Assembly (NCBI RefSeq): GCF_003334335.1
Contig: NZ_QOWQ01000012.1
Source: Escherichia coli
Lineage (GTDB): Bacteria; Pseudomonadota; Gammaproteobacteria; Enterobacterales; Enterobacteriaceae
Strand: one strand, 5' to 3'
DNA: 64,000 nt
Both the position numbers and the translations under genes were made by a program. This document shows positions 15,538 to 62,425 of the stretch, piece after piece (the first letter of the stretch is position 1; the number at the start of each line of letters is the position of its first letter). The notes under the pieces are model-generated. The model worked only from the letters and a program-made list of their open reading frames with translations, had not been told where the DNA came from and ran no database searches.

Positions 15538-15837
15538 CTGGCACGCGATGGGTTGCAATTAGCCGGGGCAGCAGTGATAATGCGCCTGCGCGTTGGTTCT
15601 CAACGCTCTCAATGGGGGCTCTGTTGGTTCTCCCGCAACGCTACTCTGTTTACCAGGTCAGGTCCGGAAGGAAGCAGCCAAGGCAGATGACGCGTGTGCC
15701 GGGATGTAGCTGGCAGGGCCCCCACCCATTTCTGCCTCCCACCGTTTCGTCAAAAAATCCCAACATGGCTAAACTTTAACCACAACTGACGTCGCAAGAA
15801 TTGTCTGGCTGCGCAGTACGCTTCGGAGGTATGTCTG

Positions 15838-46369: not shown

Positions 46370-46453
46370 ACACCGTCGCTTAAAGTGACGGCATAATAAT
46401 AAAAAAATGAAATTCCTCTTTGACGGGCCAATAGCGATATTGGCCATTTTTTT
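46370..46453 (+). ncRNA. chiX: Hfq-dependent small RNA ChiX (MicM/SroB/RybC)
   Basis: ybaK-ybaP intergenic; acaccgtcgcttaaagtgacggcataataataaaaaaatgaaattcctctttgacgggccaatagcgatattggccattttttt matches the ChiX sequence as I recall it, ending in hairpin ggccaatagcgatattggcc plus T7. Confidence 0.75.
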
Positions 46454-47746: not shown

Positions 47747-48000
<254 letters not shown>

Positions 48001-55762: not shown

Positions 55763-56528
55763 TATTACTAACGAATCATTAGCACTGGCATTAATGCTGG
55801 TGGTGGTGGCAATCTTAATTAGCCATAAAGAAAAACTGGCGCTGGAGAAAGATATTCTCTGGAGCGTCGGGCGAGCGATAATTCAGCTGATTATTGTCGG
55901 CTATGTGCTGAAGTATATTTTCAGCGTGGATGATGCCAGCCTGACATTATTGATGGTGTTATTTATCTGCTTTAATGCGGCGTGGAACGCGCAAAAACGC
56001 AGTAAATATATTGCTAAAGCTTTTATCTCATCGTTTATTGCCATTACGGTCGGGGCGGGAATTACCCTGGCGGTGCTGATTCTCTCAGGGTCGATTGAAT
56101 TTATCCCGATGCAGGTGATCCCTATCGCCGGGATGATTGCCGGTAACGCCATGGTAGCGGTGGGGTTGTGTTACAACAATTTAGGGCAACGGGTCATTAG
56201 CGAACAGCAACAGATTCAGGAGAAACTGAGTCTTGGTGCGACGCCGAAGCAGGCTTCAGCGATATTGATTCGCGACAGTATTCGCGCGGCTTTAATTCCG
56301 ACGGTCGATTCAGCAAAAACGGTTGGCTTAGTGAGTTTACCAGGAATGATGTCCGGGCTGATATTTGCCGGGATTGATCCGGTGAAGGCGATTAAATATC
56401 AGATTATGGTGACCTTTATGCTGCTCTCAACCGCCAGCTTGTCGACCATTATTGCCTGCTATTTAACCTATCGTAAGTTTTATAATTCGCGCCACCAGTT
56501 GGTGGTGACGCAATTGAAGAAGAAATGA
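55749..56528 (+). CDS. fetB: Iron-export ABC permease FetB (YbbM, UPF0014)
   Basis: Track ORF 268 aa; ATG at 55749 gives 259 aa MNSHNITNESLALALMLVVVAILISHKEK...; overlaps the fetA 3' end by 14 nt. Confidence 0.8.
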   Translation: MNSHNITNESLALALMLVVVAILISHKEKLALEKDILWSVGRAIIQLIIVGYVLKYIFSVDDASLTLLMVLFICFNAAWNAQKRSKYIAKAFISSFIAITVGAGITLAVLILSGSIEFIPMQVIPIAGMIAGNAMVAVGLCYNNLGQRVISEQQQIQEKLSLGATPKQASAILIRDSIRAALIPTVDSAKTVGLVSLPGMMSGLIFAGIDPVKAIKYQIMVTFMLLSTASLSTIIACYLTYRKFYNSRHQLVVTQLKKK

Positions 56529-56590
56529 TGCGATGCCGGATGCGCAGCATCGCATCCGGCGTTGTGGTTCATGTGCCGATCAACGGAATA

Positions 56591-57487
<897 letters not shown>

Positions 57488-57505
57488 TTAAGCGCGCGCT
57501 TCAAC

Positions 57506-58315
57506 TCACCCCTGCAATATTTTGTCCATCACGCGCCCCGGCAGCAGGCGCTTAAGCACCATTACCGCCCAGGTCACCAGCGTCACCGGATAGCGCATCT
57601 TCGGCTTCTCGCTAATAAAAGCATGGCGTACTTTGTCCACCACCGCTTCCGGTCCCAACGTAAAGCGGGCGGCGATGCCGGGATTTTCGACTGGTTTATC
57701 ACTTTGCGTCTGGTTGACGTTGTCGGTGAAGCGAGTACGAATGGGACCGGGTTCGATCAGGCTGACTTTAATTCCGCTGTGGCGCAGCTCCATGCGCAGT
57801 GCGTCTGACCACGCCTCCAGCGCATATTTACTGGCCGCGTAAGCGCCACGACCCGGCGTGGAGATTAATCCCATCACCGATGATGTCATCACAATACGCC
57901 CTTCACCGTGCGGTAACATCGCGGGTAACAGGCGCATGGTGAGCTGGTGTGCGCCGAAAAAGTTGGCGGAAAACTGCTGTTCCATCTGCGCACGGCTGAT
58001 GGTGGAAAGGGGGCCATACATGCCGAATCCGGCATTGTTAAAGATCCCATACAGACAATTATCGGTCAGGGCGATCACCTCGTCGGCTGCGCGATCAACA
58101 CTTTCTGGTGAATCCAGATCGATCAACACGCCGGTAAATCCCATGCTGTTCATGCGCTCAACATCATCCGGTTTCCGGCAACCTGCCAGCACATGAAAAC
58201 CCTGGCGTTTTAATTCGAGCGCGCTTTCCAGGCCAATTCCACTGGAACATCCGGTAATTAAGACCGATTTTTGCATAACTTTACCTGTCAGGATCTCCGT
58301 TGCTTTATGAGTCAT
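57506..58315 (-). CDS. ybbO: Short-chain dehydrogenase/reductase YbbO
   Basis: 269 aa; SDR cofactor motif TGCSSGIG and catalytic YxxxK (YAASKYALEAW). Confidence 0.85.
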   Translation of the reverse strand: MTHKATEILTGKVMQKSVLITGCSSGIGLESALELKRQGFHVLAGCRKPDDVERMNSMGFTGVLIDLDSPESVDRAADEVIALTDNCLYGIFNNAGFGMYGPLSTISRAQMEQQFSANFFGAHQLTMRLLPAMLPHGEGRIVMTSSVMGLISTPGRGAYAASKYALEAWSDALRMELRHSGIKVSLIEPGPIRTRFTDNVNQTQSDKPVENPGIAARFTLGPEAVVDKVRHAFISEKPKMRYPVTLVTWAVMVLKRLLPGRVMDKILQG

Positions 58316-58931
58316 GATTTACTAAAGGCTGCAACTGCTTCGCCATCCAGTCGGCAATAAACGGCTGGGCGTCGCGGTTGGGATGAATACCGTCATCCTG
58401 CATCCATTGTGGCTTGAGGTAGACCTCTTCCATAAAAAAGGGCAGCAGCGGAACATCAAACTCTTTGGCGAGTTTGGGGTAAATGGCGCTAAAGGCTTCA
58501 TTATAACGGCGACCATAGTTTGCAGGCAGACGTATTTGCATTAACAATGGTTCAGCGTTGGCGGCTTTGACATCCTGCAAAATCTGGCGCAGCGTTTGCT
58601 CGGTTTGCTGTGGCTGAAAACCACGCAAACCGTCATTGCCGCCCAGTTCAACCAGCACCCAACGCGGCTGATGCTGTTTCAGCAGAGCCGGAAGGCGCGC
58701 CAGTCCTTGTTGCGAGGTGTCGCCGCTGATGCTGGCATTAACTACCGACGTTTTACTCTGCCACTTATCATTCAACAAGGCAGGCCAGGCCGCGCTAGCA
58801 GACATTCGATACCCGGCGCTCAGGCTATCACCCAGAATCAATAACGTGTCCGCTGCGGCGGCACGGAAGGTTAACAGGACCAGGAACAGGAAGGGCAAAT
58901 GCCAGCGGAAAACATTGTTGAAGTTCATCAT
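58305..58931 (-). CDS. tesA: Periplasmic SGNH/GDSL multifunctional acyl-CoA thioesterase I / lysophospholipase L1
   Basis: Track ORF 218 aa; ATG at 58931 gives 208 aa MMNFNNVFRWHLPFLFLVLLTFRAAAADTLLILGDSLSAGY (signal peptide + GDSL motif). Confidence 0.9.
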   Translation of the reverse strand: MMNFNNVFRWHLPFLFLVLLTFRAAAADTLLILGDSLSAGYRMSASAAWPALLNDKWQSKTSVVNASISGDTSQQGLARLPALLKQHQPRWVLVELGGNDGLRGFQPQQTEQTLRQILQDVKAANAEPLLMQIRLPANYGRRYNEAFSAIYPKLAKEFDVPLLPFFMEEVYLKPQWMQDDGIHPNRDAQPFIADWMAKQLQPLVNHDS

Positions 58932-59585
58932 CTTAAGAAGTCCGTCGGTCAGGGGGAGCATGAACTCTCCATCCTCACCGGAGTTGAGCTGGTTGTCAAA
59001 CGTGGCGAGACCATCGCACTGGTGGGCGAGTCGGGATCGGGTAAGTCAACCTTGCTGGCGATCCTCGCCGGGCTTGATGACGGCAGCAGTGGCGAAGTGA
59101 GTCTGGTGGGACAACCGCTACATAATATGGACGAAGAAGCGCGGGCAAAGTTGCGCGCGAAGCACGTCGGCTTTGTTTTTCAGTCATTTATGTTAATTCC
59201 TACCCTTAACGCGCTGGAAAACGTCGAGCTTCCGGCTCTGCTGCGCGGTGAGAGTAGCGCGGAAAGTCGTAACGGGGCGAAAGCGTTGCTCGAACAGTTA
59301 GGGCTGGGTAAACGTCTGGATCATCTTCCGGCACAGCTTTCCGGCGGTGAACAGCAACGAGTGGCGCTGGCACGAGCCTTTAATGGTCGACCTGATGTGC
59401 TGTTTGCCGACGAACCCACCGGCAACCTTGACCGCCAGACGGGCGATAAAATTGCCGACCTGCTGTTTTCCCTCAACCGTGAACATGGCACCACGTTGAT
59501 TATGGTGACCCACGACCTGCAACTGGCGGCACGCTGCGACCGCTGCTTACGGCTGGTGAACGGGCAGTTGCAGGAGGAAGCATGA
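58899..59585 (+). CDS. ybbA: ABC transporter ATP-binding protein YbbA
   Basis: 228 aa; MPAENIVEVHHLKKSVGQGEHELSILTGVELVVKRGETIALVGESGSGKST, signature LSGGEQQR; 5' end overlaps the divergent tesA 5' end. Confidence 0.85.
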   Translation: MPAENIVEVHHLKKSVGQGEHELSILTGVELVVKRGETIALVGESGSGKSTLLAILAGLDDGSSGEVSLVGQPLHNMDEEARAKLRAKHVGFVFQSFMLIPTLNALENVELPALLRGESSAESRNGAKALLEQLGLGKRLDHLPAQLSGGEQQRVALARAFNGRPDVLFADEPTGNLDRQTGDKIADLLFSLNREHGTTLIMVTHDLQLAARCDRCLRLVNGQLQEEA

Positions 59586-61996
59586 TTGCACGTTGGTTCT
59601 GGCGCGAATGGCGTTCGCCGTCGCTATTAATTGTCTGGCTGGCGCTAAGCCTGGCGGTGGCCTGCGTGCTGGCGCTGGGCAATATCAGCGATCGCATGGA
59701 GAAGGGCTTAAGCCAGCAAAGCCGTGAGTTTATGGCGGGCGATCGGGCGTTGCGCAGTTCACGCGAAGTGCCGCAAGCGTGGCTGGAGGAAGCGCAAAAG
59801 CGCGGCCTGAAAGTCGGCAAGCAGCTGACTTTCGCCACAATGACCTTTGCAGGCGACACACCGCAGCTGGCGAACGTCAAAGCGGTGGATGATATCTACC
59901 CGATGTATGGCGATCTGCAAACTAATCCCCCTGGCCTGAAACCGCAGGCGGGCAGCGTATTGCTGGCCCCACGCCTGATGGCACTGCTTAACCTGAAAAC
60001 GGGCGACACCATTGACGTGGGCGATGCCACCTTGCGGATTGCCGGAGAAGTGATTCAGGAACCGGATTCCGGTTTTAACCCCTTCCAGATGGCTCCGCGT
60101 CTGATGATGAATCTGGCGGATGTCGATAAAACCGGAGCCGTGCAGCCGGGGAGTCGGGTCACCTGGCGTTATAAATTCGGCGGCAACGAGAACCAGCTCG
60201 ACGGCTATGAGAAATGGTTGTTACCTCAGCTTAAACCCGAACAACGCTGGTACGGTCTGGAACAGGACGAAGGCGCGCTGGGGCGATCGATGGAACGCTC
60301 GCAACAGTTCCTGCTGCTTTCGGCGCTTCTGACCTTGCTGCTGGCAGTGGCAGCGGTGGCGGTAGCGATGAATCATTACTGTCGCAGTCGCTACGATCTG
60401 GTGGCGATCCTCAAAACGCTGGGGGCAGGGCGAGCGCAACTGCGTAAGCTAATCGTCGGTCAGTGGTTGATGGTGCTGACGCTTTCAGCCGTTACCGGTG
60501 GGGCCATAGGCCTGTTGTTCGAAAACGTGTTGATGGTGCTGCTCAAGCCCGTTCTGCCTGCTGCACTACCGCCAGCCAGCCTCTGGCCGTGGCTGTGGGC
60601 GCTTGGCACCATGACGGTCATCTCGCTGCTGGTGGGGCTACGACCATATCGCTTGTTGCTGGCAACGCAGCCTTTACGCGTATTACGTAATGATGTGGTA
60701 GCGAACGTCTGGCCGCTGAAGTTTTATCTGCCGATTGTCAGTGTGGTGGTTGTGCTGCTGCTCGCCGGATTAATGGGTGGCAGCATGCTGCTTTGGGCGG
60801 TGCTGGCGGGCGCGGTAGTACTGGCTTTGCTGTGCGGTGTGCTGGGCTGGATGCTGCTGAATGTACTTCGCCGCATGACGCTGAAATCGCTGCCTCTGCG
60901 CCTGGCGGTTAGCCGCCTGTTACGTCAGCCGTGGTCAACGTTAAGTCAGCTTTCGGCATTTTCGCTCTCCTTTATGCTGCTGGCACTGCTGCTGGTGTTG
61001 CGTGGCGATCTGCTCGACCGCTGGCAGCAGCAGCTACCTCCAGAAAGCCCGAACTACTTTTTAATTAACATCGCCACAGAACAGGTAGCACCGCTAAAAG
61101 CGTTCCTCGCGGAACATCAGATAGTCCCGGAATCGTTTTATCCGGTGGTGCGGGCGCGGCTGACGGCGATTAACGATAAGCCGACAGAAGGTAATGAAGA
61201 TGAGGCGCTTAACCGCGAACTCAATCTTACCTGGCAAAATACGCGGCCCGATCATAATCCGATTGTCGCCGGTAACTGGCCGCCAAAAGCCGATGAAGTG
61301 TCGATGGAAGAGGGGCTGGCGAAACGCTTAAACGTTGCCCTCGGTGATACCGTGACTTTTATGGGCGATACCCAGGAGTTCCGCGCTAAAGTGACCAGCC
61401 TGCGCAAAGTGGACTGGGAAAGTCTGCGGCCTAATTTCTATTTTATTTTCCCTGAAGGGGCATTAGACGGGCAACCGCAGAGCTGGCTTACCAGTTTCCG
61501 CTGGGAGAATGGCAACGGCATGTTGACACAACTCAACCGCCAGTTCCCGACCATTAGCCTGTTAGATATTGGCGCGATTTTAAAACAGGTCGGTCAGGTG
61601 CTGGAGCAGGTAAGTCGGGCGCTGGAAGTGATGGTGGTACTGGTCACCGCCTGCGGTATGTTGCTGTTGCTGGCACAGGTGCAGGTGGGAATGCGTCAGC
61701 GTCATCAGGAGCTGGTGGTGTGGCGCACACTCGGTGCGGGGAAAAAACTGCTGCGTGCCACGTTGTGGTGTGAGTTCGCCATGCTTGGGTTTGTTTCCGG
61801 CCTGGTGGCCGCAATTGGTGCGGAAACGGCGCTGGCAGTGTTGCAGGCGAAAGTGTTTGATTTTCCGTGGGAGCCAGACTGGCGATTGTGGATTGTTCTG
61901 CCGTGCAGCGGAGCGCTGCTGCTGTCGCTTTTCGGCGGCTGGCTGGGTGCGCGACTGGTTAAGGGTAAGGCGCTGTTCAGGCAGTTTGCGGGGTGA
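59582..61996 (+). CDS. ybbP: ABC transporter permease YbbP (FtsX-like)
   Basis: 804 aa; ATG overlaps the ybbA stop (ATGA); N-terminal TM helix, periplasmic domains and two blocks of TM helices typical of FtsX/MacB-type permeases. Confidence 0.85.
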   Translation: MIARWFWREWRSPSLLIVWLALSLAVACVLALGNISDRMEKGLSQQSREFMAGDRALRSSREVPQAWLEEAQKRGLKVGKQLTFATMTFAGDTPQLANVKAVDDIYPMYGDLQTNPPGLKPQAGSVLLAPRLMALLNLKTGDTIDVGDATLRIAGEVIQEPDSGFNPFQMAPRLMMNLADVDKTGAVQPGSRVTWRYKFGGNENQLDGYEKWLLPQLKPEQRWYGLEQDEGALGRSMERSQQFLLLSALLTLLLAVAAVAVAMNHYCRSRYDLVAILKTLGAGRAQLRKLIVGQWLMVLTLSAVTGGAIGLLFENVLMVLLKPVLPAALPPASLWPWLWALGTMTVISLLVGLRPYRLLLATQPLRVLRNDVVANVWPLKFYLPIVSVVVVLLLAGLMGGSMLLWAVLAGAVVLALLCGVLGWMLLNVLRRMTLKSLPLRLAVSRLLRQPWSTLSQLSAFSLSFMLLALLLVLRGDLLDRWQQQLPPESPNYFLINIATEQVAPLKAFLAEHQIVPESFYPVVRARLTAINDKPTEGNEDEALNRELNLTWQNTRPDHNPIVAGNWPPKADEVSMEEGLAKRLNVALGDTVTFMGDTQEFRAKVTSLRKVDWESLRPNFYFIFPEGALDGQPQSWLTSFRWENGNGMLTQLNRQFPTISLLDIGAILKQVGQVLEQVSRALEVMVVLVTACGMLLLLAQVQVGMRQRHQELVVWRTLGAGKKLLRATLWCEFAMLGFVSGLVAAIGAETALAVLQAKVFDFPWEPDWRLWIVLPCSGALLLSLFGGWLGARLVKGKALFRQFAG

Positions 61997-62011
61997 TGAG
62001 AGTAAATAAGG

Positions 62012-62042
62012 GGCGTTCTGGTTGAATGGAACGCCTTGTTTA
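62012..62042 (+). terminator. Candidate terminator after ybbP
   Basis: Hairpin ggcgttc-tggttgaatg-gaacgcc followed by TTGTTTAAATT. Confidence 0.6.
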
Positions 62043-62425
62043 AATTAATTCTACAATATGTTTCATTGATGATGTTATTGAATTGGTGATTTCCTATCTT
62101 TCTATTGCTGATATTAATCTGAATCGGTGGAGTTTATTGATTTTAAATATAGCCCTACAAAAATAACTCAGACTAATAAAATCATAAATCATATGCGTTG
62201 AATGGATATTATCCATATAGTGAATTTGTTGATGATGAATTCATCTGTGCTAAAAATGTTAGTTTAATAAAATATTGAAAGTGACCTGTAATAACAGTTG
62301 TTGTTGATTGAGAACAAATAAGTTTATGTGAAAAATATATAAATACATTAGCTGGTCTTGTGTGTCATTTTATTTTTTTTGTTGCTAACACAGGGATATG
62401 AACAATAACTAAAAGGGCACTTTAT

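Follow-up and report, generated by a model that had tools for sequence, protein, structure and literature searches.

What does the ATP-binding cassette (ABC) system encoded by ybbA and ybbP do, and how is it related to the periplasmic lipase gene beside it? The question is raised here by a stretch of 64,000 nucleotides from Escherichia coli (contig NZ_QOWQ01000012.1 of assembly GCF_003334335.1), hereafter called the window, in which ybbA and ybbP span positions 58899–61996 and the lipase gene tesA diverges from them. The original prediction, made from the sequence of the window, described a known gene pair joined by an ATGA overlap and related to MacB, LolCDE and FtsEX, placed it among the least understood loci of the window with no assigned substrate, and took tesA, ybbO and cnoX as clues to an envelope role. 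Reviews written before 2025 listed YbbAP as a system of unknown function (PMC5985334). In this study, the span was found to encode YbbAP, the fourth Type VII (MacB/FtsX-fold) ABC system of E. coli, which probably feeds inner-membrane lipid to docked TesA, a reading to which we assign a probability of roughly 0.6. The identity of YbbAP–TesA and the partnership of its proteins are already known from a cryo-electron microscopy (cryo-EM) study of 2025, and the locus is ordinary E. coli core genome.

The two genes are identified without ambiguity. On the plus strand, ybbA (58899–59585) opens with ATG and encodes a 228-residue ABC ATPase subunit, whereas ybbP (59582–61996), also opening with ATG, encodes an 804-residue fused double FtsX-type permease. 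The list of open reading frames (ORFs) gives exactly the predicted span, and the RefSeq names agree with it, as do the NCBIfam equivalog models, against which YbbA scored 478.8 bits (NF007879; cut-off 336) and YbbP 1457.9 bits (NF041854; cut-off 999). Both genes are intact, and a megablast search of the complete genomes of E. coli with positions 57400–62300 gave matches in 5419 out of 5426, several of them at 100% identity; ybbA and ybbP are core-genome genes of E. coli and real genes rather than chance ORFs. At their junction (GCAGGAGGAAGCATGATTG), the stop codon of ybbA and the start codon of ybbP overlap in an ATGA at 59582–59585 of the plus strand, so that the ATG of ybbP (59582–59584) shares its TG with the TGA of ybbA (59583–59585), and an AGGAGG Shine–Dalgarno sequence (59572–59577) lies 5 nt upstream. 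This arrangement (...GGAGG...ATGAT) is kept in nearly all of the 78 Enterobacterales loci compared, and the ATGA overlap suggests that the two genes are translationally coupled.

The motifs of YbbA point to an ATPase of the LolD/MacB/FtsE clade with its catalytic motifs intact: a Walker A motif (GESGSGKS, residue 43), a signature motif (LSGGE, residue 147), a Walker B motif (VLFADE, residue 167) and an H-loop (THD, residue 204). The protein is identical to chain B of PDB entry 9GE6 at 228 of 228 residues, and the closest solved structures after YbbA itself include LolD and the ATPase domain of MacB (E of about 1e-52 to 1e-55). It nevertheless falls below the NCBIfam equivalog cut-offs of LolD, MacB and FtsE, scoring 254.1 bits against TIGR02211 (cut-off 307.75) and 221.2 bits against NF008639 (cut-off 360), both models of LolD, and 205.5 bits against the MacB equivalog (cut-off 966).

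YbbP carries two FtsX domains (Pfam PF02687), both on the plus strand: the first at 60320–60670 (residues 247–363, transmembrane helices TM2–TM4; E=4.5e-13) and the second at 61628–61960 (residues 683–793, TM8–TM10; E=1.4e-10). Hydropathy places two soluble stretches of about 200 residues each beside them, namely a first periplasmic domain at 59693–60298 (residues ∼38–239, TM1–TM2), between hydrophobic segments 11–37 and 240–267, and a second at 61019–61609 (residues ∼480–676, TM7–TM8), between segments 453–479 and 677–704. The remaining hydrophobic segments comprise residues ∼291–334, 372–431 (a 60-residue double segment), 727–755 and 769–789; one more helix, at about residues 335–355, falls under the hydropathy threshold used, and the whole profile is consistent with ten transmembrane helices. 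An alignment of the N- and C-terminal halves of YbbP covers 216 residues with 26% identity (E=0.001), and in it the second periplasmic domain is homologous to the first; the same value of 26% has been given for the two periplasmic domains, in which the published structure distinguishes Porter and Sabre subdomains (PMC12646458). Pfam MacB_PCD had no match in E. coli YbbP. A family profile built from 40 diverse homologues matched, among solved structures, LolC (6e-14), LolF, FtsX, MacB, LolE, YtrF, PsdB and BceB. The description of YbbP as an 804-residue FtsX-type permease with large periplasmic domains is thus borne out, the FtsX-type topology was recovered by domain analysis rather than found missing, and the kinship with MacB, LolCDE and FtsEX holds for the ATPase as well as for the permease.

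The permease matches chain A of 9GE6 at 803 of 804 residues. The sole difference, at residue 726 (61757–61759), is alanine in the window and threonine in the PDB and K-12 sequence, and is a strain polymorphism without evident consequence. As a separate observation, a word-indexed homologue search, in which the relatives listed were all at least 87% identical, returned one protein of 1037 residues with ABC_tran and FtsX domains and 99% identity to YbbP, an apparent YbbA–YbbP fusion. An ATPase–permease fusion of this kind is stated to be absent from the superfamily (PMC5985334), and the protein, a single cluster member from a Logan read assembly, most likely arose from a 1-nt error, in assembly or in sequencing, at the ATGA junction.

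The third protein is encoded by tesA (58305–58931, minus strand), which gives a 208-residue precursor, counted from MMNFNN, of the periplasmic GDSL esterase known as thioesterase I or lysophospholipase L1. TesA scored 413.3 bits against NF007819 (cut-off 270), its GDSL motif lies at residue 34, and S36, D180, H183 and N99 are present. The prediction treated tesA as genomic context, but the link is real and stronger than that: TesA is a physically bound partner of the transporter (PMC12646458; PDB entry 9GE8). It was found as a partner of YbbP by an AlphaFold 'in silico pulldown' against 534 periplasmic proteins, residues of YbbP and TesA coevolve, and YbbA, YbbP and TesA co-purify (PMC12646458). 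Three entries for E. coli K-12 YbbA and YbbP have been deposited (PDB entries 9GE6, 9GE7 and 9GE8; McAndrew et al., PLoS Biol 2025; PMC12646458), and cryo-EM showed a 2:1:1 YbbA:YbbP:TesA complex with ten transmembrane helices. Every residue that the study names, catalytic and interface ones included, was found in the window proteins: S50 and S148 in YbbA; D145, D148, R235 and R239 in the first periplasmic domain of YbbP, together with L403 and L754; and D35, N138, R141, R142 and Y143, the last four at the interface, in TesA. With these residues, the matches of YbbA (228/228) and YbbP (803/804) and the same gene order, the window holds the same system as E. coli K-12.

In the published structures, TesA sits on top of the periplasmic domains of YbbP, in the position where an adaptor would be, and is contacted by D145 and D148; its active site faces YbbP, and the active-site cavity is continuous with the periplasmic cavity of the permease (PMC12646458). 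A stable complex forms with or without nucleotide. Between the apo and adenylyl imidodiphosphate (AMP-PNP) states, the ATPase dimer closes, four stalk helices zip together and a hydrophobic pocket that faces the outer leaflet shuts, and there is no transmembrane pore (PMC12646458); taken together, these features are the signature of mechanotransmission. The complex hydrolyzes p-nitrophenyl esters, acetyl-coenzyme A (acetyl-CoA) and nitrocefin, and in coarse-grained and atomistic simulations the pocket takes up lysophosphatidylglycerol, which is raised partway out of the bilayer while R235 and R239 contact its phosphate (PMC12646458).

Of the mechanisms considered, the published one is the best supported. 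Two YbbA ATPases lie under one YbbP, a fused pseudo-dimer of two FtsX-type four-helix units with two linker helices and two periplasmic domains, and TesA docks on those domains with its active site pointing down into the transporter. In the nucleotide-free state, the pocket open to the outer leaflet would take in a single-chain lipid. Binding of ATP would close the YbbA dimer, and this closure, passed mechanically across the membrane, would zip the periplasmic stalk helices and squeeze the lipid upward into TesA for hydrolysis; hydrolysis of ATP would then reset YbbAP, and nothing would cross the membrane. Lysophospholipids and acyl esters are the candidate substrate class, as indicated by the structures, co-purification, enzymology and simulations of 2025 (PMC12646458). 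The description of the locus as lacking a substrate and among the least understood has been superseded, though not in full: the work of 2025 gave the transporter a partner and a class of candidate substrates, whereas the native substrate is still undemonstrated. The mechanism is held at the probability given above because we infer the extraction step and the substrate; we likewise infer that ATP turnover drives delivery.

Several points weigh against this mechanism. TesA is active alone and is widely used without YbbAP, and therefore its turnover of soluble substrates does not depend on the transporter. The substrate profile of free TesA does not differ from that of the complex, ATP does not stimulate the esterase activity and deletion gives no distinctive phenotype, while lipid extraction comes from simulation alone and, in the authors' words, 'remains to be experimentally confirmed' (PMC12646458); the accompanying Primer makes the same points on these limits (PMC12654888). 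Furthermore, an RNA-seq survey counted tesA–ybbA among 16 divergent 'excludons' present in at least 50% of 58 MG1655 transcriptomes (PMC12288877), a label that, if it means mutually exclusive expression, fits poorly with an obligate complex.

The association of the three genes reaches far beyond E. coli. When 1.84 billion cluster representatives were searched exhaustively with YbbP, 7862 relatives passed E<=1e-3 and 2606 passed E<=1e-30; hits of full length had 800–890 residues and 30–54% identity. Synteny was followed by contig look-ups of eight such representatives (30–54% identity), and in all eight a divergent GDSL lipase gene (PF00657/PF13472) lies directly upstream of an ABC_tran gene, which is followed by an FtsX permease gene; the divergent start-to-start gaps are 19–121 nt. 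A scan of a genome collection with one genome per species, seeded with an eight-sequence alignment, returned 80 loci, all from Enterobacterales and with 56–99% identity, and tblastn recovered the full cnoX–ybbO–tesA<>ybbA–ybbP block in every Enterobacterales locus with enough flanking sequence. Judged by these comparisons, the lipase–ATPase–permease trio is an ancient, widespread and conserved cassette. The survey agrees with the physical complex and widens a brief KEGG-based remark in the 2025 study (PMC12646458), and the check that the original prediction proposed, synteny with tesA across genomes, came out in its favor. A literature search with the Pseudomonas aeruginosa locus tags PA2856–PA2858 gave no match.

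The other two neighbors behave differently. Genes for a short-chain dehydrogenase/reductase (SDR; ybbO-like) and a thioredoxin–tetratricopeptide-repeat protein (cnoX-like) stand beside the cassette throughout Enterobacterales and in the closest of the eight representatives (contig L002, 54% identity), but in none of the seven more distant ones. As functional context, the use that the original prediction made of them, they carry less weight than tesA: ybbO and cnoX are lineage-specific neighbors and therefore weak clues to function. Apart from the cassette itself, a marine metagenome contig that carries a YbbP homolog of 36% identity also holds SMODS nucleotidyltransferase and SLATT_4 genes (9960–11385 on L004, 9959–11384 on L005), a defense pair resembling cyclic-oligonucleotide-based antiphage signaling systems, which lies downstream of the permease gene at a distance of about 2.4 kb and is probably unrelated to the cassette.

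Among characterized systems, LolCDE–LolA is the closest in its working, since an acylated molecule is extracted and handed to a periplasmic partner. It is likewise of Type VII, LolD is the best NCBIfam match of YbbA among the named families after YbbA's own, and its permease units are of the FtsX type with Porter and Sabre periplasmic domains. However, LolC and LolE are two separate four-helix proteins, whereas YbbP is one fused chain of ten helices encoded by the single permease gene of the locus; YbbA is under both LolD equivalog cut-offs; and LolA is a chaperone with another fold and docking mode, not a hydrolase. BceAB and PsdAB of Firmicutes share with YbbAP a single fused ten-helix Type VII permease, a separate ATPase, weak profile similarity to YbbP and a lipid-binding pocket at the equivalent position (PMC12646458). 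They differ in that BceB has one extracellular domain (TM7–TM8), as opposed to YbbP's pair of periplasmic domains, and in that Bce transporters are partnered by a membrane histidine kinase, as opposed to a periplasmic esterase; neither the ORF list for 56000–64000 nor the RefSeq annotation contains two-component kinase or regulator genes at the ybbAP locus. MacAB–TolC and FtsEX–EnvC share the transmembrane fold, the mechanotransmission principle and related ATPases. MacB, however, has its ATPase fused to the permease, works as a homodimer and depends on both an adaptor and TolC, whereas YbbA is a separate gene product; FtsX has a small periplasmic domain and controls peptidoglycan amidases via EnvC, and neither MacAB nor FtsEX binds a lipase.

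The comparison with FtsEX leads to another account of YbbAP, which we regard as rather unlikely. Here, the transporter would anchor TesA to the membrane and gate it allosterically, in the style of FtsEX–EnvC, and would not lift substrate from the bilayer: in the course of the ATP cycle, the TesA active site would become accessible or blocked or, in a simpler variant, TesA would be kept against the inner membrane and so act on its surface. FtsEX, also of Type VII, needs no more than conformational change to control a periplasmic hydrolase pathway, YbbAP undergoes large ATP-induced periplasmic movements, and its complex with TesA is stable irrespective of nucleotide (PMC12646458); the deep pairing of lipase and transporter would suit gating as well as extraction. 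The failure of ATP to stimulate hydrolysis may be counted in favor of this account, yet it also cuts the other way, since ATP barely alters esterase activity in detergent and no gating is therefore seen with soluble substrates (PMC12646458). Two further features count against tethering or gating, namely the apo hydrophobic pocket, which is open toward the outer leaflet and coincides in position with the lipid site of BceAB, and the continuity of the TesA and YbbP cavities (PMC12646458).

A further possibility, distinctly unlikely in our judgment, retains extraction and changes its object. The substrate would be another membrane-partitioning ester or thioester, such as acyl-CoA or acyl-thioester leakage products, by-products of lipoprotein or lipid A biosynthesis or xenobiotic esters, and the role would be detoxification or salvage. 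The broad spectrum of TesA, seen with the p-nitrophenyl ester, acetyl-CoA and nitrocefin substrates, would allow this, and acyl-CoA is the second candidate of the authors (PMC12646458), although acyl-CoA is cytoplasmic whereas both TesA and the pocket are on the periplasmic side. The aldehyde reductase gene ybbO directly follows tesA in Enterobacterales, but it is outside the widely conserved cassette, and a β-lactam resistance phenotype was not found (PMC12646458). A tripartite efflux pump of the MacAB–TolC type, or an inner-membrane exporter with incidental adjacency to TesA, is effectively excluded despite the nearness of YbbA to the MacB ATPase domain (∼1e-50 to 1e-52) and the MacB-like fold of the YbbP periplasmic domains (PMC12646458), because there is no membrane-fusion adaptor ORF in 56000–64000 by the ORF list and RefSeq annotation, nor any adaptor gene in the same orientation at the locus or beside any homolog examined, the structures have no transmembrane pore and hold TesA in the adaptor position (PMC12646458), and a lipase gene adjoins all eight distant homologs, which is not incidental.

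Delivery of lipid to docked TesA is the reading that we prefer. The starts of tesA and ybbA overlap head to head and antisense at 58899–58931, on both strands, by 33 nt that are exactly in phase, so that codons 1–11 of YbbA (MPAENIVEVHH) lie antisense to codons 11–1 of TesA (MMNFNNVFRWH). RefSeq places the tesA start at the second ATG, which gives an overlap of 30 nt, and the open frame of tesA extends beyond 58931 to 58961 in the ORF list for 56000–64000. The sequence GGAAGGG (58889–58895, plus strand), inside the tesA coding sequence, is the likely Shine–Dalgarno sequence of ybbA, and the columns just upstream of the ybbA ATG are strongly conserved. That the tesA and ybbAP operons 'partially overlap' has already been stated (PMC12646458), and only the phylogenetic depth and the in-phase geometry are added here.

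At least 74 of the 78 loci compared in Enterobacterales keep the overlap geometry; the genera compared range from Escherichia to Providencia, Morganella and Photorhabdus. In 63 of the 78, both starts are ATG and the 33-nt geometry is identical, and 11 further loci have ACG or ATC as the first tesA codon; in the eight TMNFNNVFRWH variants tallied, the second codon is ATG, giving an overlap of 30 nt. Over 77 loci (the window and 76 others), the columns of the overlap are conserved at 0.93 on average, compared with 0.85 in the adjoining sequence that codes for ybbA only and 0.66 in that which codes for tesA only, and the third-codon positions of ybbA are conserved at 0.94 in the overlap and 0.71 just downstream. 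Such raised third-position conservation is the pattern expected if both strands are translated. An annotation artifact was considered and is unlikely, given the conservation of both ATGs and the difference between 0.94 and 0.71; in addition, neither start is followed by an in-frame ATG before the TesA signal peptide, which is essential, or the first YbbA β-strand. Outside Enterobacterales, the genes of the homologs examined are divergent without overlap, although contig L002 may share it.

Each promoter and 5' leader must lie in the opposing coding sequence, and therefore the transcription or translation of one gene could tune that of the other. It is possible but unlikely that the overlap is a regulatory device beyond compaction, through which each gene would tune the other by antisense RNA, cleavage by RNase III or promoter interference. 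A consensus scan found no sigma-70-like promoter in 58300–59600, the total number of sites being that expected from shuffled sequence.

The remaining features of the locus are peripheral to these questions. Directly downstream of tesA on the minus strand lies ybbO (57506–58315), an NADP-dependent SDR aldehyde reductase gene (RefSeq name; NF005950, 536.8 bits). Its annotated start overlaps the stop of tesA by 11 nt at 58305–58315 (CATGACTCATAA); this start is doubtful, as about residue 10–14 (MQKSVLITG, ATG 58276) is where the SDR model of NCBIfam and many of the tblastn alignments open, and the tesA–ybbO overlap is therefore uncertain. The ORF of cnoX (56591–57481, minus strand) has 296 residues, compared with 284 residues from the RefSeq start at 57445; most cross-genus alignments open at residue 12–13, and the first ATG (57481) is probably not the true start. 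RefSeq gives the gene order as fetA–fetB–cnoX–ybbO–tesA<>ybbA–ybbP–rhsD. Beyond ybbP, a hairpin with a weak T tail (62010–62037, plus strand), 14 nt past the stop codon, was picked up by a scan for terminator-like sites and is only suggestive as an operon terminator, since such sites are no commoner than in shuffled sequence. The 430-nt region between ybbP and rhsD (61997–62425; rhsD starts at 62426) is AT-rich, with a GC content of 0.43–0.46 compared with about 0.57 in ybbP and 0.64–0.69 in rhsD, and a genomic SELEX (systematic evolution of ligands by exponential enrichment) study lists a constitutive RpoD promoter and H-NS binding there (PMC3946193). Elsewhere in the window, matches above the Rfam gathering score lie at 15622–15718, 32522–32586, 40613–40690, 46370–46453 and 47751–47929; signal recognition particle RNA (ffs), the dnaX frameshift element, three naRNA4/REP-type repeats and sroB are among them, all expected for this region of E. 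coli.

If the overlap does regulate the two genes, it could set the ratio of TesA to YbbAP and hence the balance between free periplasmic TesA and TesA docked on the transporter. The window adds nothing new on the substrate of the system or on ATP-driven delivery of lipid; both bear on the detoxification of lysophospholipids and on the homeostasis of the envelope.

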